DNA of 64,000 bases from Alphaproteobacteria bacterium UBA1908. GTDB taxonomy: Bacteria > Pseudomonadota > Alphaproteobacteria > Caedimonadales > UBA1908. The notes beneath the pieces are model-generated. The model made no database searches. It was not told the DNA's origin and saw nothing but the letters and a program-made list of their open reading frames with translations. Location of the stretch: NCBI GenBank assembly GCA_002337525.1, contig DDGG01000003.1, forward strand, positions 5,450-69,449. Reading direction: 5' to 3'. This document shows, piece after piece, positions 46,356-56,823 of this stretch. The translations under genes were made by a program, and so were the position numbers. The first letter of the stretch is position 1, and every line of letters begins with the position of its first letter.

Positions 46356-47999
46356 CTATGAACTCGTTTCTGCTTTTAAAAGCACATCGTTATGGCTTTG
46401 GGAAAGAATCTCTGTTCTGTATAACCCAAGCAGGTTTAGATCGTCCAGAAATTCCTTGCGTGTTACGATAAAAAAGCGACCTTCTTTTTGAGCAAGCGCT
46501 GCAAATTCCTGTCGTGTCATCATCCAGGAGGAGGTGTCTTCGATGCTCATGCCAAATTCCAGCTCTCCTTTCCAGTCTGTAACAATAATTTTTTCTCCTA
46601 CATAGGGAGGAAGATCCTGGTAGTATCTTCCAAACGCAACAATCTTGTCACCTGGTTGCTTTAGACGATTGATTTCAAGGGCCAGATTTTTGACAGAGCG
46701 ATGATCCAGCAAAGGCCAGGCACTGTTCAAAGTGACCAGTACAACAAGGCTGGTGATCATAATACCACCGAAGGTATGCCTCATATCGTACCGTTTCCAG
46801 AAAACATAGACAGATCCCATTAAAAGGGCAACGATAAGAGTAATCCAGTAGGGTTGTAAGGCTGTATTCATGAAAAGATTCTGATGCCAGAGAGCGACAG
46901 GGATGCCTAAACCTAGAACACAGGCCATAAGAATGAAAGAAAGCCACGGTGTGGGGTGTCTGCTGTCAAAAAGATCATCCAGTGTGCGTCCCATTAAGAC
47001 TGAAACTAAAGGGAAGACAGGAAGGATATAAGGAATTAATTTTGAGCTGGAGAGAGAGTAAAACAAGAAAATGACTCCCGCAGAAAGGAGTAGAAAAAAG
47101 GCTTCACGTTCGCGATCCAGGGATCGCCGAAGAGATCTGAAAGTTGAAGAAAGTGTCCTTAAGAATAAACCTGTCCAGGGAAAAAGCCCCAATAATAATA
47201 TAGGAATAAAAAACCAGACAGGCTGATAACGGCTGTGAGTTGTCGTTAAGAAACGTTCAAAGTGTTCATGTATAAAGTAAAACTGAAAAAATTCAGGATT
47301 TTTTAGGCTTACAGCAATATGCCAGGGAACAGCTATCAGAAAAAAGATCTCAATACCCCAGTGTTTAAAAGCCAGTTTCAGACTCCTCCAATCCTGACGC
47401 AAACAACACCACAATAATATAGAGGCTCCCGGCAGGACAGCACCGATTAATCCTTTTGTCAGGACGGCCAATGCGGCACATAAAAAAAACAGAAAAAGAT
47501 AGAAACGTTGATAAGAGGGCGCGCGTTCCCGGGTGGCAAGAAGAAAATTAAAGAGAGACCCTACAATAAAAGTTGAAACAGCCATATCAAGAATCAAAAT
47601 ACGGGTATGGGCATAAAAAAGAAGGCTTGTTGCCAGAATCCCGGATCCCAGAAGACCGGCTCGTCGACCATAAAGAAGACGGCCTGTCCCGTAAACCATC
47701 AAACATGTCAGGAGTCCCAAAAAGGCCGGCCAAAACCGTAAAGCCCACTCATTGACACCAAAAGCTTTTATGGAACTACTTGTGAGCCAGTACATTAAAG
47801 GAGGCTTCTCAAAATATTTGACCCCGTTCAAGCGAGGGGTAATAAAATCTCCTGAAGCTACCATTTCCCGGGGAATTTCTGTATAGCGGCCTTCATCTGG
47901 TGCTGACAAGGGCCTTGAACCTAACATAAAGGTAAAAAGAGACCCAATGGTTAGAATCAAAAGAAAAACATCTTTTAAGGCAGATCGCCGTGACAACAT
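46356..47999 (-). CDS. arnT: Lipid A 4-amino-4-deoxy-L-arabinose transferase-like glycosyltransferase (GT39/GT83, PMT_2)
   Basis: 547 aa, polytopic. N-terminal PDEGRYTEIPREM and KYFEKPPLMYW motifs typical of ArnT. Confidence 0.85.
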   Translation of the reverse strand: MLSRRSALKDVFLLILTIGSLFTFMLGSRPLSAPDEGRYTEIPREMVASGDFITPRLNGVKYFEKPPLMYWLTSSSIKAFGVNEWALRFWPAFLGLLTCLMVYGTGRLLYGRRAGLLGSGILATSLLFYAHTRILILDMAVSTFIVGSLFNFLLATRERAPSYQRFYLFLFFLCAALAVLTKGLIGAVLPGASILLWCCLRQDWRSLKLAFKHWGIEIFFLIAVPWHIAVSLKNPEFFQFYFIHEHFERFLTTTHSRYQPVWFFIPILLLGLFPWTGLFLRTLSSTFRSLRRSLDREREAFFLLLSAGVIFLFYSLSSSKLIPYILPVFPLVSVLMGRTLDDLFDSRHPTPWLSFILMACVLGLGIPVALWHQNLFMNTALQPYWITLIVALLMGSVYVFWKRYDMRHTFGGIMITSLVVLVTLNSAWPLLDHRSVKNLALEINRLKQPGDKIVAFGRYYQDLPPYVGEKIIVTDWKGELEFGMSIEDTSSWMMTRQEFAALAQKEGRFFIVTRKEFLDDLNLLGLYRTEILSQSHNDVLLKAETSS

Positions 48000-48116
48000 A
48001 TGTTAAAAAATATAAGGAACCATGGCGAAACATAGTCAAATTCATTAAAAATGTCAACCATTTCTATGTTAATATGATTTATTAAATGTAATTAAAAGGA
48101 GTAAAAAGAAATAAAG

Positions 48117-48389
48117 ATGAGCATTAATATTGTTATGTATACAAAAAACATTTGTCCCTATTGTGCAATGGCGAAACATCTTCTTGATGAAAAGGAACTT
48201 TCTTTTACCGAGAAAAATGCGGAACACGCTGATATCTTTGAGGAAATGATGTTGAAATCTGAAGGACGTCGTACTGTTCCCCAGATTTTTATTAATGATA
48301 AGCCTATCGGAGGGTTTGATGATTTAAATGCCCTGAACAGGTCAGGTGAGCTAGATCGCCTTATTAAAGAAGCGGGTTTTTCTTCCTAA
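48117..48389 (+). CDS. grxC: Glutaredoxin
   Basis: 90 aa. CPYC active site and the TVPQIFI...IGGFDDL motif. Confidence 0.92.
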   Translation: MSINIVMYTKNICPYCAMAKHLLDEKELSFTEKNAEHADIFEEMMLKSEGRRTVPQIFINDKPIGGFDDLNALNRSGELDRLIKEAGFSS

Positions 48390-49141
48390 TATCCCCAACC
48401 ATCAGCTTCTGTTTTTTCAGGATGCAGGGCAAGATACCCTGCACAGGAAAAGTGCGCGTAATGAGCCACTAAATTTTGAGAGGTGGACCATTTTAGCCGG
48501 TGACGATGGGGAGTGTCTGACTTTGCAGTATAGGGAAAATCAGCAAATCGAAGAGTTCTGGATTCATTGATTTTTTCGCCTGTGCCCTGAGGATTTTTAC
48601 CAGTTTCTCCTCGGCTGACAAGGACGACAGCAAGGGTTTCTGATGCAGGTAAATCCAGGAGATGATCAGCGGATGTTAGCAAGGTGATCTCTTTTGAGTG
48701 TGCGCTGCAGAAGTGTTTGACTTTATCACTATCTGATTCGGGAGGCGTTGTTAAAACCGGGTCAACACTATAGATAAAAAAATGTCCCCATCCATCTTTG
48801 ACATGCGATGAAGCCAGTCCAAGAGTTTCATACGGTACAGTCCCTATTGCTTTTGCTCCAGAGCATTTATGAGGAGCTTTTCCCGGGTGGTCAGAAAAGC
48901 CGGGACAGGGCAAGTGGCCATGGGTCAAGGCATAGTTGGCAAGGCTTGAAAGAATCCGTTCTTGATGAGAGGATGTTTTTATGACGCGATTATGTTTGCG
49001 TTGCTCTGTCAGATAGGGAAGCACAGCGGCTCCAATTACCCCCATTATTGCCAGGGCAATAGAGGCTTCCAACAGGGAGAAACCTGAATCTTCACCTCCT
49101 TTTTGTGAGAGTTTTTTTAAAACTGAAAATAGAGAACGCAT
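48386..49141 (-). CDS. Prepilin-type N-terminal cleavage/methylation domain protein (minor pilin/pseudopilin)
   Basis: 251 aa. Leader MRSLFSVLKKLSQKGGEDSG / FSLLEASIALAIMGVIGAAVL, with G at -1, F at +1 and E at +5. Confidence 0.8.
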   Translation of the reverse strand: MRSLFSVLKKLSQKGGEDSGFSLLEASIALAIMGVIGAAVLPYLTEQRKHNRVIKTSSHQERILSSLANYALTHGHLPCPGFSDHPGKAPHKCSGAKAIGTVPYETLGLASSHVKDGWGHFFIYSVDPVLTTPPESDSDKVKHFCSAHSKEITLLTSADHLLDLPASETLAVVLVSRGETGKNPQGTGEKINESRTLRFADFPYTAKSDTPHRHRLKWSTSQNLVAHYAHFSCAGYLALHPEKTEADGWGY

Positions 49142-49929
49142 GCTTTATCTTTGTAGTGTCCATTATATTTTCCCTGGGCCGTGACACAGGATCCTTTGGG
49201 AACATTTTTGCCATCGCGAGCCCTGATTTTTCCCTCTTTTGGGAGGCCACTATCAGCTTTTTCATCGAGGCTCATGGCCTGAAGAGGGGTTAATCCTGAG
49301 GTTCCCTGGGCCTCTCCCAGGACAAACCAGTGATGTCCTTCTCCAAAAACATTGTGTTGTACTGTGAATCCGCCTCCGATTTTGGCTTTTGGGGCTCCCT
49401 GACCGAAGTGTGCCTGTCCGCTGGAAGGTGGTTTCCCGGGAGATGAAATAAGGTTAGCAGCTGCAAGATGAGACCAGAAAGAGAGGGCTTCCTGCCCTCG
49501 GCCACCAGAGGCCAGCCCCGGGCCTTCGATAACGCCATTCCCATTTCCATTTTGTAGAGAAGAATGGATGTAGTCAGAAGCCCTATCATAATCACCGGGC
49601 AGGGCGTTATAACGATCCTCAAAAAGAGTCACCGCCATCTTATAGCTGTTGGCCTGGGTTAAAACAGATTTAAGACGGGCACTTTCCAGCAGATCTTGTC
49701 CCTTTAGGATGCCTCCAATAATCAGGCCCATAATTAAAAGGGCAATGGACAGTTCAACGAGGCTAAAGCCTGCTTCATCACTAATAAAATCTGGTGAAAG
49801 CTGACGAGGATTAAAGACTCTTTTCAGGAGTGATGTAGATTCCAGGGGCCTATGGATGCTGTCTTGTGAATTTTTCTTGGAGAAGAAAAAACTTTTACGG
49901 ATCCTGAGGGAGATGGTCTTTAAAAACAT
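49117..49929 (-). CDS. Prepilin-type pilin/pseudopilin with a C-terminal Cys pair
   Basis: 270 aa. Cleavage motif EAG/FSLVELSIALLIMGLIIGGIL, but only after about 53 residues from the sole ATG. C-terminal C-x16-C resembles a type IVa pilin D-region. Confidence 0.75.
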   Translation of the reverse strand: MFLKTISLRIRKSFFFSKKNSQDSIHRPLESTSLLKRVFNPRQLSPDFISDEAGFSLVELSIALLIMGLIIGGILKGQDLLESARLKSVLTQANSYKMAVTLFEDRYNALPGDYDRASDYIHSSLQNGNGNGVIEGPGLASGGRGQEALSFWSHLAAANLISSPGKPPSSGQAHFGQGAPKAKIGGGFTVQHNVFGEGHHWFVLGEAQGTSGLTPLQAMSLDEKADSGLPKEGKIRARDGKNVPKGSCVTAQGKYNGHYKDKACVLYFQF

Positions 49930-50490
49930 ATGTGTCCGGAAAGAATGAATACCGCCAGGATTATTGACAAAGAAACCAAAAATCTCAAGCCCTTAAAAAT
50001 AAATATTTAAAAAGGAGGGATAGGTAAGAATGTTTTTTTCAGACTTTATCTTTATTACCTTATTTGATCGTTAAAACAATATGTAAGACATGATATTTAC
50101 TGTGGCCAACATAAGGCGTGTAATAAGGAAAAAATCTTATTTTTTAAGTTGTTTTTGACTGTATAGGGTCGTGGAAATGAATGAATTGGCTGTCTCTCTT
50201 GGACGTTATTCGAACCACGAAAAATTACTTCATAGCAATAAGTGAAAATCATGGAAAGCATTACTATAAAAGAGATACAAAGCTTTATAGAGACTAAAAA
50301 TCAAGTACCACTGGTGTTGGAATCACCCCTCAATACTGGAGCTGGAAACACCTTAAAATTACTTGGTTTGAATCCTCGCTTGGGATTCGAATTGATATGA
50401 ATTTTGAATGCACAATCTTCTACATTTTTTACATACATAGTGAGGTGTAGAGATATAGTTTTATATTAAAAAATATGTTATTGGTATTAC

Positions 50491-52323
50491 ATGTCAGAAA
50501 AAATTACAGAAAACAGCTCAAGTTCAGATCAGGTAACTATTGATACTTTCTTGGAAAGAATTTCTGATTTTGTCACAACCGTTTATTTTAAGTTTAAAAG
50601 CTTGTTTGATTTCCCGAACCAAGAAGAGTGTGCTTATCAAATTTTAAATCTATGCTTTTATACTCCAACAGATAAAGCAACGGCTAGTATCTTTGGGTTT
50701 GCCGAGTTTATAGCAGCATTAGCATTGCTGGTGGTCGTCTACACCATTACGGATGTACGATATAAATTCAGAATACGCACTGCACGGTTGCCACTTCTAA
50801 AAATGGCTTTTTTCGTAATTAGTATTGTTGGCTTTGGCTCACTTATTACCGACTTCTGGATGGCTTCAAACTGTCCGGTACTCGACTCCTTCATTACATA
50901 TAGCGGTCTACAATTCTCTTATGGCTTTCTATTTTTATCTATGGTTTTGCTATGGTTGTTTTTTGCATTCATGCGCCCACCGAAGTTTAACAAAAGCAAT
51001 GCCAAAAAATATTTGCATGAGCTGTATCGCTATATCCTGCAAGGGTCAGAAACAGAGTTGCCAGTAATTGCTCATGAGTTAGGACGCTCTGCAAGAGAAA
51101 TTATAAACCTATCAGAAGAGTCTCCTTCAAGGAGGTTTCCAAAGGCCGACAACATATTTACTAAATTTTTCAAATCAGAGGACAAGACCGGACAATACGC
51201 CTACGAAATACTATTAATGATCGGCACAAGACGTTTATGCCGATATATGGCTGCTGTTGCGCCAGCGACTGTTATAGAATTTTTCTTGGAGTTCTCTGAA
51301 AATATCAAAACCAAAAGTTTGCCTATTGGGCAATTCGTGAGGAATATTTCTACGGAAGCCATTCTGAATAAAGATAGCGTCTTATATCATGAAGATGAAG
51401 GGTACAACTCTGGCTGGTTCGGATATGTACGCCCGTTTAGTAAAGCTGTGTACGGCGACTACGACTTGATAGAAATTCTTTCACAAGACCACTCGTCACC
51501 TTTGGATTTAGATTACAAAGCACTAGCGGGCTTGGATCCAGAACAATTCGAAGCATACACCCGCGTCACACTGATTACATTTGAAGAATATATAAAAAAG
51601 TACCCTGATGGCTTAACCAATTCCTATGCGCTAAACCAAGCATTTTCAAATATCAAAAGCGCCACTTTAAGCATCTACCAAATAAACAACATAACTGACT
51701 GGCACAATACAGATGTATATCGAAAATTCAGAACATCAGTAGACTTCATACGCGATGTAATACGTCTCCTGAACAAACACGGGCAACCTCGATTGGATAT
51801 CCTGAAAAGCACTGAAAATTACAAAAGAGGTGATATGTATGGTCATGTTGCCAATTTAATGTTTGAAATAATTTCAGCAGCTTCAAGGGTTAATAAAAAC
51901 CGAGATACATGTTGGGAAATTCATCATAATTCCGTTTGGACTGACTTTTTTAACTATGGAGAAAACAAGGATCCTCGAAAACTTGTGTTATTTAGGCTGC
52001 GACGTGCGCTCTATGATGAAATTTGTCGATTATCTGAATTGCCAAATTATAAATCAGCTAGGATCTTGGCTATATGCCTGAACGTAATGGGTCCGGTTAT
52101 TCCGAAAAAGGGAATCTTTATGTATAGCGAACAAAGGGCTTTGCATAAGGCTATGATTGGATGGTTAAAAAACAACTATTTAGACTTGATTGATAAGCAG
52201 CCTGATGTAGCCAATGCATGTATCATTGGTAGCATTTCCTATGATGAAGATAAAAAACAAATCATCAAGAGTTACATCAAAGGTTTAAGGCTTGAAGAAT
52301 CGAAAGAATACCTGTCACTTTGA
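50491..52323 (+). CDS. Hypothetical membrane-anchored protein (three N-terminal TMs plus about 440 aa helical cytoplasmic domain)
   Basis: 610 aa with no motif recognised. TMs at about residues 65-160. Lies in the tRNA-Gln-adjacent islet. Confidence 0.65.
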   Translation: MSEKITENSSSSDQVTIDTFLERISDFVTTVYFKFKSLFDFPNQEECAYQILNLCFYTPTDKATASIFGFAEFIAALALLVVVYTITDVRYKFRIRTARLPLLKMAFFVISIVGFGSLITDFWMASNCPVLDSFITYSGLQFSYGFLFLSMVLLWLFFAFMRPPKFNKSNAKKYLHELYRYILQGSETELPVIAHELGRSAREIINLSEESPSRRFPKADNIFTKFFKSEDKTGQYAYEILLMIGTRRLCRYMAAVAPATVIEFFLEFSENIKTKSLPIGQFVRNISTEAILNKDSVLYHEDEGYNSGWFGYVRPFSKAVYGDYDLIEILSQDHSSPLDLDYKALAGLDPEQFEAYTRVTLITFEEYIKKYPDGLTNSYALNQAFSNIKSATLSIYQINNITDWHNTDVYRKFRTSVDFIRDVIRLLNKHGQPRLDILKSTENYKRGDMYGHVANLMFEIISAASRVNKNRDTCWEIHHNSVWTDFFNYGENKDPRKLVLFRLRRALYDEICRLSELPNYKSARILAICLNVMGPVIPKKGIFMYSEQRALHKAMIGWLKNNYLDLIDKQPDVANACIIGSISYDEDKKQIIKSYIKGLRLEESKEYLSL

Positions 52324-52337
52324 TAAAAACTCTATCC

Positions 52338-52372
52338 TTTGATCTCCACTTAACAAACAAAAGGAGATCAAA
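52338..52372 (+). promoter_or_regulatory. Perfect 10-bp hairpin occluding the SD of the downstream gene
   Basis: TTTGATCTCC-13 nt-GGAGATCAAA. The right arm contains GGAG and ends 1 nt before the ATG at 52373. Confidence 0.6.
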
Positions 52373-53029
52373 ATGGAAAATAAACAAAACCAATCTACTA
52401 AATGGACTAAAAACAAAGTTACGAACGCTTTTGAAAAGAGCATTCGGACATTGAGGCTTTTGCCATACGCAAAAGTAAGGGGTTATTTCAATACTTGGCC
52501 TGATATCATTTATTCCGAATTAGAAGTATTGCAGCAGGAACATAAACCAAGAAAGCTGCGTGCTAAGGCTGAAGATATTTTAGAGCTGGAAGCCGTTTTG
52601 GAATGGATTGTATGGCTCGAAGAGAATGAGCGTAAACTCGTTTGGGCAAGAGCAAGAAGAAAGCCTTGGAAAGTCATATGCCGTGAATTTGGCTGTGGAC
52701 GTACAAAGGCTTGGCAAGACTGGAGCTATGCTATCGAAAAGATCGTGCATCAGCTTAATAAAGGGGAATCCACGAAAGAACGTCATGAAGACTTAATGAA
52801 GGCTGATATTCGTACCAAACAAAGATTTGTGAACAATATTACGTCACCTGGATTTTCTAACCAGCTAGGGCGGGCTTTCGAGGGACTTGGATATTCGCCG
52901 GAAGAAGGTCAAGAGGCTGCCGCGAACATTATCGCGTTCGGAAAATACATCATGGAGACTAAAATTGAGGAAGAAAAATCGAAATACCCTAACAGGACTC
53001 GAACCAAGCAAGCCACTGATAATAAATAG
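52373..53029 (+). CDS. DUF6362-like phage/mobile-element-associated protein (putative HTH)
   Basis: 218 aa. WT...FE..IRTLRLLP...GY..TWPDII ... LEWIVWLEENERKLVWARARRKPWKVICREFGCGRTKAWQDWSYAIEKIVHQLN matches the DUF6362 pattern I recall from alphaproteobacterial prophages. Confidence 0.6.
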   Translation: MENKQNQSTKWTKNKVTNAFEKSIRTLRLLPYAKVRGYFNTWPDIIYSELEVLQQEHKPRKLRAKAEDILELEAVLEWIVWLEENERKLVWARARRKPWKVICREFGCGRTKAWQDWSYAIEKIVHQLNKGESTKERHEDLMKADIRTKQRFVNNITSPGFSNQLGRAFEGLGYSPEEGQEAAANIIAFGKYIMETKIEEEKSKYPNRTRTKQATDNK

Positions 53030-53114
53030 TTTTTAATATTTAACGGCAGCCATTAACGAATTTTTGAACCTGAAAAATGAGGCCTGATAAGGTGTTCAGA
53101 AGGTGGTGAAAAAT

Positions 53115-53189
53115 TGGCTGGGGCGGCAGGATTCGAACCTGCGCATGGCGACACCAAAAACCGCTGCCTTACCGCTTGGCTACGCCCCA
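53115..53189 (-). tRNA. tRNA-Gln (anticodon UUG)
   Basis: I folded the 75-nt sequence by hand. Acceptor TGGGGCG/CGCCCCA, T-arm GCAGG-TTCGAAT-CCTGC, anticodon loop TTTTGGT (UUG), encoded CCA. Strong resemblance to E. coli tRNA-Gln. Confidence 0.92.
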
Positions 53190-53291: not shown

Positions 53292-54212
53292 TTAATTTCC
53301 CGCGCTTTGAGGAAAGACACTATAATAATAAGATTTGCCTTTGATCAAAACTTTTGAAGCTTTCACAAGATCTTTTTGTGCATTTTCTAAGGGTCTTGAA
53401 AAAGCCCCCTTTTCATAGCGAACAATTTGATGAGAGAAATCTGACAGCTTTTCCCGTATCGGGGAGGTATAAATTTCTGAAGCATCCTCCAGTTCCTCCT
53501 GACTGGAGATATGGAAAATTTCCTTGCCTCGTTTAGAGACAAGAAGATAACTTCCCATGCCATCAATTGCGTAGAATTCCTGGATTTTATGATCTGCAAT
53601 ATATCGGTCAAAGAAAGTTTTGAAATCTTCCTCTTCCAATAAAGATTGCATGCCACGTAAAGAACTTCCAGCAATCTTTTCCGAAAGACCCAGGAAGAAA
53701 CGGTCAATATTACGGATGATTTCTGACTTTAAATGCTCGTCAAAATCTCGCAGGTGTTTTTTCAGGAATCCATGAATTTGGCCTTTATTGAAGGCTTCGA
53801 TGGCCAAAGTTTCATCTGCGGCATTTGTGATCAGGAGTTTTTGGACAAAACCATCTTGAATGTTTTCAAAAAGGGTTAATCCGTCTAAAGGTCCCAAATA
53901 ATAGTCCGAAACAATGATAGGGTATAAATTATCAAGAGTTTTCTTAAGTCGTTTGAACTGATTCAGATGAATTTCAGACGTAAAAACGCCTGCCTCGGGC
54001 TCATCGCCATAGAAAAGAGTTTCGACCGCTTGATCTACCCCCCCTAAAGAGTCTAACTTTTTGGCAATTGGGGGTGTTGTTTCAAATTTAAAAGAAGCTT
54101 CATCTTTCATGAGTTCACATAGTGCATGACTGAAATCAGGGTCATCTTCAACAAGTAAAACGCGAATAGGATATTTGATTAACGGAACTTTAAGCATTTT
54201 CTTGTCTCCCAC
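53292..54212 (-). CDS. Response regulator with an atypical receiver (long insertion) and an uncharacterised C-terminal output domain
   Basis: 306 aa. Receiver elements RVLLVEDDP, VSDYYLGPLDG and LLITNAADE...AFNKG..GFLKK. About 150 aa of the C-terminus has no recognised DNA-binding motif. Overlaps the kinase gene end. Confidence 0.7.
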   Translation of the reverse strand: MGDKKMLKVPLIKYPIRVLLVEDDPDFSHALCELMKDEASFKFETTPPIAKKLDSLGGVDQAVETLFYGDEPEAGVFTSEIHLNQFKRLKKTLDNLYPIIVSDYYLGPLDGLTLFENIQDGFVQKLLITNAADETLAIEAFNKGQIHGFLKKHLRDFDEHLKSEIIRNIDRFFLGLSEKIAGSSLRGMQSLLEEEDFKTFFDRYIADHKIQEFYAIDGMGSYLLVSKRGKEIFHISSQEELEDASEIYTSPIREKLSDFSHQIVRYEKGAFSRPLENAQKDLVKASKVLIKGKSYYYSVFPQSAGN

Positions 54213-56823
54213 AGTTAACTATCATTTCTGTAAAATGTCCTTCCTTTGTGAGGGCCACAATTGTCATGCCCATTTTGACCAGAACTTTTTTTACAAAAAA
54301 TAGTCCCAGGCCCGTTCCCCCTTTACGTGTAGAAAAGAACTCCTTAAACAAAAGGTTTTTCCTTTGCTGGGACATTCCTTCACCTGTGTCTTTAACAGAA
54401 AGAAAAATAGCGCCCTTATCTACATAGGTACGGATAAAGATATCTCCTTTTTGAGCACGCTCCAAACTTTCTGTTGCATTTTTGATAAGGTTTAAAATGA
54501 CATGCACAAAAAGATGCTCATCAACCTTAACAGGAAGAGGTCCTTGCGCAAGGTCTAATTTTATTCTGTTCGTATTGAACTTTTGATAAGGATACAAAGA
54601 GAGCGTCTTTTTAATAAGATCATTAAGATCGCAAGTTTGAATGAGAATCTTCTTTTGATGGCTAATCTTGGCCAGGAGATTATCAATGATAGCCTGAGCG
54701 TTGGTAACAACCCGTTCAATTGTTTCCAGGCTTTTATCAAGGTCTTCTGGATCTTTTCTGATAATTTTACAATTCATTTCAATTGATGCGAGAGGCGCTC
54801 TGATCTCGTGGGCAATTGTGCCTCCCATAAATTTCATTGTACGCAGCTTTTCTTCATAAATGAGCTCACGACGGCGAGAAAAAATAAAACCGAAGACCAA
54901 CGCAAAGGAATAAACGTAAATGAGGGGAAGTAGTATTTTTTTCGACTTTTCAAAGAGTTCCGTAAAGTCACCCCATATGAAAAAGAGCACGCTTGCAAGT
55001 ACAAAGCCTATTCCAAGCAGAAGAAGAAACTTTTTTGAGTCAACAAGAATCGATAAAAAGAGAGTAGAAATCAGAAAATGAACCATCCAAAACCAGTGAA
55101 ATTCATTTAAAAAAAGAAGATAGCTTGATAAAAAGGGTAGACAATAAGCCAGAACAACATACCAGTAAGCCAAAAACCCGACACTGTTATTATGTCGCAG
55201 TTTATCCAGAAAAAGAAGGCTGAAAAAAAGCAAGGCTGCTATCATTTTCAGGAGCAGGGCATGGGGATAGATTTGGTAAACCTCAGGCCAGAAGAAATAA
55301 GGAAAAATATAATTTATCAGAGCATAAAAACCAAAAAGGAAATAGGGGGGGGTATCATTATCAGAGAAAAATGTTTCTGAAATTTTTGAAGATAAGGACA
55401 TTTTATTTAAGAACCTTGGTTTTTTTAAAAGATGAAATTTTGACCCTAAGGACTTTTTCATAATAAAGTGAATGGTAAAAAAAGTTAAGGCATTCATTCC
55501 CATACTTGGTAAAAGGCTATCAAGTCCAAGGATTTTCTCAAGATCAAACACTATCCAAAATACAAAAACAGATACTCCTGCAAAGGCACTTCCCAGAAAA
55601 GCATACTTATTTGTGCGCAGACCAAAAAGTGTTGCAAACAAGGGAATAACAACGATGGGTCCCCAAACATTGAGAAAGCTCAAAATAAGATCCATGATGC
55701 TTTTTAACTGAAGAGCTGCAAAGATAGAGAAAATACCAATTAAAAGGGTACTGATTTTTGTGATCAGTAACTCTTTTTCCTGAATAATTTTACTCTGTGA
55801 TAAAGGTTTAAGAAAGTCATGAACAAAAGTGATGCCTGCCACGTTTAAGTAGGAATCTGCTGTTGACATAATAACAGCCAGTAAGCCTGCTACAACAAAG
55901 CCTTTAAAACCAAGGGGAAGGATTTGATCAATTAAAAAGGGGAAAATTGAATTAGGATCAATTTGGGGGGCTAGTGCCAAAGCAATAAAGGCGATAAGAG
56001 CAATGGTGAGGTAAAAAGGGACTTCTAGAAGGGCTGCCAGGTTCAGAGATGTCCGAATTTGGTCTCTGTCTTTTGCCATTAACATCCGCTGAACAACTGC
56101 TGGATCCAGAAAAGGAATACAGAAAATAAAAAACAACATTGTATAGCTTGAGTATGAAATAGTTTCGGGGCTAAGATCCAGTTTTGAGTCTGGAATATGC
56201 CTTAGTAACCCTTCATATCCCCCAAAATGTTGAAGTCCAAAACTGCAAATAGCAGGAATTGTAATCATTAAAGCAGCAAACTGAATAACGTCTGTCATCG
56301 TAACAGATCTAATACCACCAGATGTTGTATAGATAACGACTAATCCGCTTCCAATGATAACGCTCCATTGATAGGGGATTTCCAGAAAATAGCTTAATAA
56401 ATATCCAATGGCCCCAATTTGGGCACCAACATAACCAATGGAAAGAAGTGTTCCCGACAGTCCAGTAATCACTTTTCCAGACCATCCATAGTTTTTTTCC
56501 ATAATATCGCCAGCTGAGAAACAGTCTTCAAATTTTTCAAAATGGCGGGTTGCAACAAAAGATATTAAAAGGGCGTTAACAGGAAATGCCATAGAAATAA
56601 AGACGTATATCAACCCATCTGTGAAAACTTTTTCGGCAATTCCTATTGTGTTTTCTCCTCCGATAAAAGTTGCAACAAGGGTTGAAATCAGAAAAGGTCC
56701 TGCAAAGCTTCGGTCTGCAATTGCATAGTCTCTTATTGATTTAATTTTCTGGCCCTGATAAAGGCCTATAACAAGTGTTAGGATGAGGTACCCAATAATA
56801 ATGCCAACATCTACAGAACCCAT
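54190..56823 (-). CDS. Sodium:solute symporter (SSF/SLC5) domain fused to a histidine kinase (CbrA/CrbS-like architecture)
   Basis: 877 aa. The N-terminal roughly 480 aa is SSF-like polytopic, followed by extra TMs, an H-box (GGTIAHEIRAPLASI) and HATPase_c (DTGEGMS, GGTGLGLFFVKKV). Confidence 0.82.
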   Translation of the reverse strand: MGSVDVGIIIGYLILTLVIGLYQGQKIKSIRDYAIADRSFAGPFLISTLVATFIGGENTIGIAEKVFTDGLIYVFISMAFPVNALLISFVATRHFEKFEDCFSAGDIMEKNYGWSGKVITGLSGTLLSIGYVGAQIGAIGYLLSYFLEIPYQWSVIIGSGLVVIYTTSGGIRSVTMTDVIQFAALMITIPAICSFGLQHFGGYEGLLRHIPDSKLDLSPETISYSSYTMLFFIFCIPFLDPAVVQRMLMAKDRDQIRTSLNLAALLEVPFYLTIALIAFIALALAPQIDPNSIFPFLIDQILPLGFKGFVVAGLLAVIMSTADSYLNVAGITFVHDFLKPLSQSKIIQEKELLITKISTLLIGIFSIFAALQLKSIMDLILSFLNVWGPIVVIPLFATLFGLRTNKYAFLGSAFAGVSVFVFWIVFDLEKILGLDSLLPSMGMNALTFFTIHFIMKKSLGSKFHLLKKPRFLNKMSLSSKISETFFSDNDTPPYFLFGFYALINYIFPYFFWPEVYQIYPHALLLKMIAALLFFSLLFLDKLRHNNSVGFLAYWYVVLAYCLPFLSSYLLFLNEFHWFWMVHFLISTLFLSILVDSKKFLLLLGIGFVLASVLFFIWGDFTELFEKSKKILLPLIYVYSFALVFGFIFSRRRELIYEEKLRTMKFMGGTIAHEIRAPLASIEMNCKIIRKDPEDLDKSLETIERVVTNAQAIIDNLLAKISHQKKILIQTCDLNDLIKKTLSLYPYQKFNTNRIKLDLAQGPLPVKVDEHLFVHVILNLIKNATESLERAQKGDIFIRTYVDKGAIFLSVKDTGEGMSQQRKNLLFKEFFSTRKGGTGLGLFFVKKVLVKMGMTIVALTKEGHFTEMIVNCGRQENA

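Follow-up and report, generated by a model that had tools for sequence, protein, structure and literature searches.

A stretch of 64,000 nucleotides (nt) of contig DDGG01000003.1 from Alphaproteobacteria bacterium UBA1908 (hereafter the window) contains a small two-gene islet directly beside its only transfer RNA (tRNA) gene, tRNA-Gln. One of the genes encodes a membrane protein of 610 amino acids (aa), and the other encodes a 218-aa protein with a DUF6362 domain. We consider it likely that this islet is the stripped remnant of a mobile element that had integrated at the 3' end of tRNA-Gln, and that its cargo was kept for an accessory benefit. A remnant of a tRNA-targeting element had already been proposed in the original prediction, which was made from the letters of the window. 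That interpretation was right in substance, but the 9-mer repeats offered as its evidence are weak; the strong evidence is comparative and comes from the mobile gene families and from sister loci.

Layout of the islet and its proposed history

The islet and its immediate surroundings comprise the following features:

49930-50490, strandless: AT-rich intergenic stretch of 561 nt, with a guanine-plus-cytosine (GC) content of 31-35% (from composition)
50491-52323, plus strand: 610-aa membrane protein (from the list of open reading frames, ORFs)
52373-53029, plus strand: 218-aa DUF6362 protein (ORF list; PF19889)
53115-53189, minus strand: tRNA-Gln, anticodon UUG (ttg), with encoded CCA (ARAGORN; Rfam RF00005, 59.4 bits)

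ARAGORN and Rfam agreed with the original prediction that tRNA-Gln lies on the minus strand and that its 3' end points to the left, toward the islet. The two protein-coding genes are co-oriented and are separated by 49 nt. The stop codon of the DUF6362 gene at 53029 is only 85 nt away from the 3' end of tRNA-Gln at 53115, which is the location expected of a tRNA-adjacent island. The AT-rich intergenic stretch is probably the left limit of the islet. The islet interval contains only two un-nested ORFs of at least 60 aa, one of which is the DUF6362 gene, while the other has no match in Pfam. The ORF list and Pfam revealed none of the structural, packaging or lysis genes of a prophage in this interval, and Pfam detected no integrase domain in the islet or in the flanking genes.

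Elements with tyrosine recombinases enter the 3' part of tRNA genes and duplicate it as the attachment (att) sites attL and attR. At the present locus, the 3.2 kb between a pseudopilin-like gene and tRNA-Gln would constitute a horizontally acquired genomic islet, and a tyrosine recombinase would have inserted the ancestral element site-specifically at the 3' end of tRNA-Gln. Later, the integrase, most of the genes and the recognisable distal att repeat would have disappeared, leaving the element immobile and fixed in the population. The first survivor would be a member of the 610-aa family, which is carried as a single cargo gene by tRNA islands, defence islands and the ends of prophages, and the second would be a DNA-binding protein of the phage DUF6362 family. 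The membrane protein would have been retained for an accessory benefit, most likely phage exclusion or defence. We infer both the integration of an element at this site, rather than an arrival of the genes by another route, and the retention of the membrane protein for such a benefit. Decayed islets without an integrase at the 3' ends of tRNAs are a known kind of feature and a routine product of element decay.

The 610-aa protein belongs to a family of mobile cargo genes

Both islet genes are foreign and mobile in character. The genes most similar to the 610-aa gene share 85%, 68% and 55% identity with it and are located in non-syntenic loci at tRNA-Leu, tRNA-Arg and tRNA-Val, respectively. 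The following sister loci were used for comparison:

L003, 85% identity: adjoins tRNA-Leu, with an excisionase-like DUF771 gene and RovC-type regulator genes
L007, 68% identity: downstream of tRNA-Arg
L194, 68% identity: adjoins a transposase fragment
L013, 55% identity: island with tRNA-Val, a tyrosine integrase, the family gene and a caspase-like gene
L077, from the metagenome scan: tRNA-Glu, integrase and family gene; an 18-nt repeat of the tRNA 3' end closes the locus
L065, from the metagenome scan, 1-2707: tRNA-Leu(caa) at 15-99, the family gene at 442-2124, and a 3' repeat of about 41 nt at 2425-2464

The similarity between the window and the sister loci on the nucleotide level ends at the borders of the gene, covering only 50563-52313, with 83% identity to L003. 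The genes downstream of the family gene in the sister loci (a TPR protein, a DUF771 protein, and unknowns) are unrelated to one another, and no neighbouring gene family was conserved across 92 loci of the 610-aa family. Markers of integration were counted in the 50 family loci that had at least 5 kb of flanking sequence. A tyrosine integrase was present in 11 of the 50 loci, and in 10 a tRNA had its 3' end directed toward the family gene, compared to 3 loci with the opposite orientation. Taken together, an integrase or a gene-facing tRNA 3' end was found in 19 of the 50. Furthermore, the family gene was present on nine viral contigs, mostly at the edge of a prophage; on one of them it is part of a P2-like prophage and adjoins an ApeA-type gene, and on another it adjoins an integrase. 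These results support the view that the 610-aa family is mobile cargo, which occurs in unrelated contexts at different tRNAs.

The full architecture of a tRNA-associated island, i.e. tRNA, integrase, cargo and 3' repeat, is present in L013 and L077. In L013, the 3' part of tRNA-Val recurs 8 kb away as a perfect repeat of 55 nt that closes the island. The window islet resembles such islands in immediately adjoining a tRNA 3' end and in its cargo, which stems from phage and island families. However, it differs from them in consisting of only two genes, in having neither an integrase nor a demonstrable distal repeat, and in its host-like composition.

Another known class is formed by the cis-mobilizable elements (CIMEs), which are decayed integrative elements that have no genes for integration and transfer and have kept attL and attR (PMC5704250). 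L065 fits this definition: its islet of 2.3 kb contains the family gene alone, without an integrase, and is enclosed by an att pair of about 41 nt. As an observation in its own right, L065 represents a clean case of a single-gene element of the cis-mobilizable type. The window islet is also devoid of integration and transfer genes, but it differs from a CIME in that no contiguous att-type repeat was found. With no recognisable att sites, it would have decayed beyond the CIME stage and is presumably immobile.

The DUF6362 protein and a parallel arrangement at tRNA-Arg

The second islet gene had been assigned to DUF6362 and to prophages in the original prediction, and both assignments were borne out. 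The 218-aa protein belongs to PF19889 (DUF6362), which it matched with an E value of 1.6e-29 and 102.6 bits (cut-off 31) at model positions 2-98 of 98, and it matched phrog_6836 with an E value of 7.7e-32. DUF6362 was found on 117 viral contigs, with copies that are about 48% identical, and its position in prophages is between a D5-type primase and a gpA-type large terminase, confirming that DUF6362 is a prophage gene. Homologues from Rhodobacter phages are annotated as helix-turn-helix (HTH) DNA-binding proteins. The DUF6362 core comprises residues 29-124 and is followed by a helical C-terminal extension of about 90 residues. This extension distinguishes the protein from the phage HTH proteins of PF19889/phrog_6836, as does its location at a chromosomal tRNA rather than within a prophage. 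The structural model of the 218-aa protein had a mean predicted local distance difference test (pLDDT) score of 77.5. Its best local folds were sigma-factor region 4 domains, with target-normalised template modelling (TM) scores of 0.65-0.80, and these matches were weak, with E values above 1. The core is a putative HTH domain that resembles sigma-factor region 4, and the protein is probably a transcription regulator. A literature search with the name 'DUF6362' yielded no paper.

A DUF6362 gene was found in a comparable position at a second locus:

L110, 7700-10830: in this order, a GIY-YIG gene, a SMODS nucleotidyltransferase gene, a 163-aa protein, a DUF6362 gene and tRNA-Arg(ccg)

The DUF6362 gene of L110 is 46% identical to that of the window and stops about 110 nt short of the minus-strand tRNA-Arg, on its 3' side. 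The 163-aa protein has two hydrophobic helices, and an integrase was not found at L110. The geometry is thus that of the window, with another tRNA and another membrane-protein cargo, and the arrangement of cargo, DUF6362 gene and tRNA has been seen twice. The spacer of L110 contains the T-loop-like sequence GGCTTCGAATCC as well as a terminator-like hairpin. In addition, the C-terminal helical motif SPEEGQEAAANIIAFGKYIME of the DUF6362 protein in the window (52850-53029) resembles the N-terminal motif SEPEAREAARNLIGFVKTILE of the L110 homologue P0128, so that this small module is joined to opposite ends of the DUF6362 core in the two loci.

Structure and conservation of the membrane protein

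The 610-aa protein had been predicted to contain three N-terminal transmembrane segments and a helical cytoplasmic domain, in agreement with the hydrophobicity, the charge distribution and an AlphaFold2 model. Three hydrophobic, transmembrane helices are formed by residues 65-83, 102-120 and 142-160, and the large C-terminal part is predicted to be cytoplasmic from the distribution of charges. The model was almost entirely alpha-helical (pLDDT 87.4; predicted TM score 0.82). A structural comparison by AlphaFold and Foldseek had been suggested along with the original prediction. It produced a confident all-alpha model, but the Foldseek search against PDB and BFVD retrieved only generic HEAT/ARM solenoids as weak matches, with TM scores below 0.27.

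A full profile search yielded a family of 912 clusters at 50% identity, nearly all of which have lengths of 530-620 aa. More than 150 strong homologues are distributed over unrelated phyla, and none of them has a Pfam annotation. The source names include Alphaproteobacteria, Brocadia, Scalinduaceae, Nitrospirales, Nitrospinae and Thermodesulfobacteriota. In a subgroup of 804-823 aa (P0006, P0007 and P0034), the N-terminus is extended by about 200 residues, which have no Pfam domain. The family is well folded and widespread, and it is not covered by any domain or defence database. A match to phrog_25374 places the protein in this phage family (E 1.4e-57; residues 185-609 against profile positions 4-397 of 406) and is confined to the cytoplasmic domain. 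In a tblastn search of phage and plasmid collections, the 610-aa protein had no match.

Conservation within the family is strongest in transmembrane helix 1, in cytoplasmic loop 1 (D88, Y91, R94), and in the motif N285..E289..N293.D295-S296..Y299-H300-E301 of the cytoplasmic domain. Because transmembrane helix 1 and cytoplasmic loop 1 are among the most conserved parts, the membrane part would be more than an anchor.

Flanking genes

The genes on both sides of the islet and the tRNA are as follows:

49117-49929, minus strand: left flank, 270-aa pseudopilin-like protein with an N-terminal methylation motif (Pfam N_methyl)
53292-54212, minus strand: right flank, 306-aa protein with a weak receiver domain (Pfam search)
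54190-56823: symporter-histidine kinase fusion of 877 aa, which adjoins and overlaps the 306-aa gene, the latter being downstream (Pfam search)

The 270-aa pseudopilin-like gene is not considered part of the islet. Its methylation motif begins at residue 51 of the protein. It is one of two neighbouring minus-strand genes with prepilin-type N-terminal methylation motifs (48386-49929), and no further secretion or pilus genes are near. These two genes are richer in GC (0.46-0.47) than the other genes whose GC content was measured from the 40-kb position on, and the maximum of the sliding GC profile (0.45-0.51 in the profiled stretch of 44-60 kb) also lies over them.

On the right side, the 306-aa receiver-domain gene and the kinase fusion represent host two-component signalling and are outside the islet. 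The symporter part of the fusion is a sodium:solute symporter, and the receiver domain is located in the middle of the 306-aa protein and remained under the Pfam threshold. Only three relatives of the 306-aa protein, with 65% identity, were found among 5.8 billion proteins. One of them has a kinase gene upstream, and the islet genes are near none of them.

Candidate att repeats and evidence against an integrated element

Three 9-mers shared with the tRNA region had been put forward as possible att remnants. All three are present in the window, together with the reported spacing difference of 5 nt and the hairpin. The sequences of interest are:

50184-50216, minus strand: candidate att remnant (site A), AATTGGCTG, 15 nt, ATTCGAACC, in the orientation of the tRNA 3' end
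50363-50395, plus strand: hairpin of 14 pairs with the arms GGTTTGAATCC and GGATTCGAA (T-loop-like), followed by a T-rich tail
52992-53004, minus strand: CAGGACTCGAACC, which agrees at 12 of 13 positions with the T-arm segment 53127-53139 of the tRNA, in the same orientation

Taken singly, the 9-mers are uninformative, because 69 exact matches of this length to the 105-nt tRNA region were counted in the rest of the window. Within the 64 kb, both strands included, only one collinear 9-mer pair has a diagonal shift of at most 6 nt, and such a pair was obtained in 2 of 20,000 Markov simulations. T-loop-like 11-mers (GGTTCGAATCC, with at most two mismatches) have 10 matches outside of the tRNA, and 4 of these are within the islet, which makes up 5% of the window (binomial P of about 0.001). 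Both statistics are post hoc and were designed after the data had been seen. Moreover, the T-loop matches are not independent, since one hairpin accounts for two of the four with its arms. The block between the paired 9-mers cannot be aligned (10 nt vs 15 nt). CAGGACTCGAACC is located within the last codons of the DUF6362 gene, and the encoded residues are partly kept in the 80%-identical homologue P0126.

The same script for repeat detection was applied to sister loci as positive controls and returned contiguous repeats of 55 nt (L013), about 41 nt (L065) and 18 nt (L077). As genuine att repeats of the sister loci are thus contiguous blocks of 18-55 nt, the 9-mers are a possible but unproven trace of an att site. 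Site A was also considered as a tRNA fragment, and this was rejected: its sequence allows no T-arm, and nhmmer and the gapped alignment were not significant.

Three further observations were made in this region. A possible ORF of 52 codons (50242-50400), without a Pfam match, finishes in the 14-pair hairpin. An imperfect, AT-rich direct repeat of 23 nt (49986-50008 and 53009-53031; 78% identity; 3,023 nt apart) brackets the islet and is probably due to chance. As read from an alignment of the tRNA-Gln genes of the window and L013, most differences fall at stem positions that pair together, and they are therefore uninformative about the point of crossover.

A number of results weigh against the reading of the islet as a decayed integrated element with retained cargo. 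In a strict local alignment of the tRNA and its flank with 49930-50490, the best score was 18, which was equalled by 27% of shuffled sequences and by 26% of real windows. A permissive gapped alignment of the candidate remnant scored 26, a value equalled by 13% of real windows and by 5% of simulations. In addition, nhmmer detected nothing at the candidate site, and a direct repeat of the tRNA of at least 12 nt is absent from the window. A lack of significance in a proper alignment had been named beforehand as the outcome that would speak against att remnants, and by that measure the 9-mers fall short.

The original prediction had described the islet as integrase-less, in accordance with Pfam and tblastn. 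Using two island integrases as queries, tblastn produced only noise in the window (E of at least 0.75), and no integrase pseudogene or fragment was present. A compositional signature of the islet genes was also lacking: neither GC nor the GC content at third codon positions (GC3) set them apart from their neighbours, with GC3 values of 0.375 and 0.402 vs 0.29-0.43 in 13 other genes of the window.

An empty tRNA-Gln site was not found in genome collections, among relatives of the flanking genes, or in assemblies of the organism. The scan of genome collections with the 877-aa kinase of the right flank retrieved only distant kinase domains and no relative, and the 65%-identical relatives of the receiver-domain gene are not syntenic with the window. 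An exact look-up of the left-flank protein showed that the islet is present in every assembly that carries the left-flank gene. Furthermore, the 610-aa gene is paired with a DUF6362 gene in this genome only.

The same side of the balance includes the searches with the 610-aa protein, which has no match in Pfam, NCBIfam or PADLOC and for which a profile search of PDB was empty, and also the finding that many of its homologues adjoin housekeeping genes. The survey of homologue neighbourhoods, which had been proposed with a view to prophages and defence islands, found integrases or gene-facing tRNAs in 19 of 50 loci and prophage edges, and also many housekeeping neighbours.

Breaks in assemblies were found at two places. 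Two Tara contigs, one spanning 47679-50386 and the other 50388-52985, run collinearly with the window and abut in the middle of the hairpin. Population heterogeneity was considered as the cause and rejected; because the contigs are collinear and meet inside the 14-pair hairpin, an assembly effect is the simpler reading. A Logan contig ends within the tRNA at 53151, and a Tara scaffold with the receiver-domain gene begins at about 53164, as judged from gene coordinates. These two breaks within tRNA-Gln, which come from independent assemblies, are uninformative, probably because the tRNA sequence is common to different genomes.

Alternative explanations

It is conceivable, and in our view improbable, that both genes are long-resident and vertically inherited, that their adjacency to tRNA-Gln is a coincidence, and that no element was ever present. 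Such a history would agree with the composition of the islet genes, which is indistinguishable from that of their neighbours, with their presence in all sampled assemblies of the organism, and with the lack of both an integrase and a significant repeat. However, both gene families occur in prophages and islands, and the closest homologues are in unrelated contexts at other tRNAs. The nucleotide identity of 83% to L003 is limited to the gene, and the relatives of the flanking receiver-domain gene have no islet genes nearby.

It is very unlikely that the islet is still mobilisable, as a CIME or a satellite for which another element would supply the integrase in trans. The recombination sites would then be either the T-loop-like repeats at 50383-50393 and 52995-53005 or the pair of 50184-50216 and the tRNA. 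The post hoc enrichment of T-loop-like 11-mers (P of about 0.001) would be in line with such sites. L065 is an integrase-less single-gene islet with good att repeats, L110 provides another islet without an integrase, with a DUF6362 gene at its end, and CIMEs are an established category (PMC5704250). In contrast, the repeats of the window are imperfect and have lengths of 9-13 nt, as opposed to the 18-55-nt att cores of the sister loci, no assembly contains an islet-free variant, and the Tara break at 50387 is explained more simply by the hairpin, given that the contigs are collinear.

Also very unlikely is a single system in which the membrane protein senses a signal and controls the sigma-region-4-like DUF6362 protein, similar to an anti-sigma/sigma pair: the two genes are indeed co-oriented and 49 nt apart, and the DUF6362 model weakly resembles sigma region 4 domains that were crystallised with anti-sigma factors, but DUF6362 is a neighbour in 0 of the 91 other loci of the 610-aa family, it is found on more than 100 viral contigs and at L110 without the membrane protein, and a functional pairing is unlikely because the co-occurrence is restricted to this genome.

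Possible function of the membrane protein and significance of the islet

A tentative proposal for the function of the 610-aa protein is a membrane-acting role in phage exclusion or defence, in which the conserved membrane segment would be the effector and the cytoplasmic domain would be the sensor. Accessory and defence hotspots include the variable loci of P2-like prophages and genes that are embedded in operons for type I restriction-modification. Members of the 610-aa family occupy similar places. RhuM and HsdS of type I restriction systems are neighbours of family genes in Brocadia and two other loci, and the family gene directly follows the RhuM and HsdS genes in L016-L018 (Candidatus Brocadia) and L033. 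In L021, which is a P2-like prophage, the family gene follows a homologue of tail gene D and adjoins an ApeA-type gene. A caspase-like protease as well as Mrr, TIR and HipA domains are also among the neighbours of family genes. Separately, in L018 an ISL3 transposase fragment follows the family gene.

These defence-type neighbours are only suggestive. The family differs from known defence hotspots in its negative PADLOC result and in its many housekeeping neighbours, and the latter make the support for a defence role weak. PADLOC-DB v2.0.0 contained no match for either islet protein in the PADLOC search that had originally been suggested; with 62 family members, three isolated matches were obtained, each with an E value of at least 0.015, and no defence link emerged.

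A more far-reaching possibility, which we regard as rather doubtful, is that the family represents a new single-gene, membrane-acting anti-phage or exclusion system, a cassette that would be spread by tRNA islands, restriction-modification loci and the ends of prophages. As part of the same reading, the DUF6362 gene that closes the slot between cargo and tRNA in both the window and L110 would hint at a family of small integrase-less islets with a terminal DUF6362 gene and interchangeable membrane-effector cargo.

The islet is a pointer to an unannotated protein family that recurs at accessory positions in tRNA islands, prophages and restriction-modification loci. The comparison loci show that the cargo outlasts the decay of its carrier; they range from an island of 8 kb that encodes an integrase to an islet of 2.3 kb in which a single gene is still enclosed by att repeats. 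If the membrane protein is indeed a defence or exclusion protein, it would add one more, and new, membrane-anchored single-gene system.

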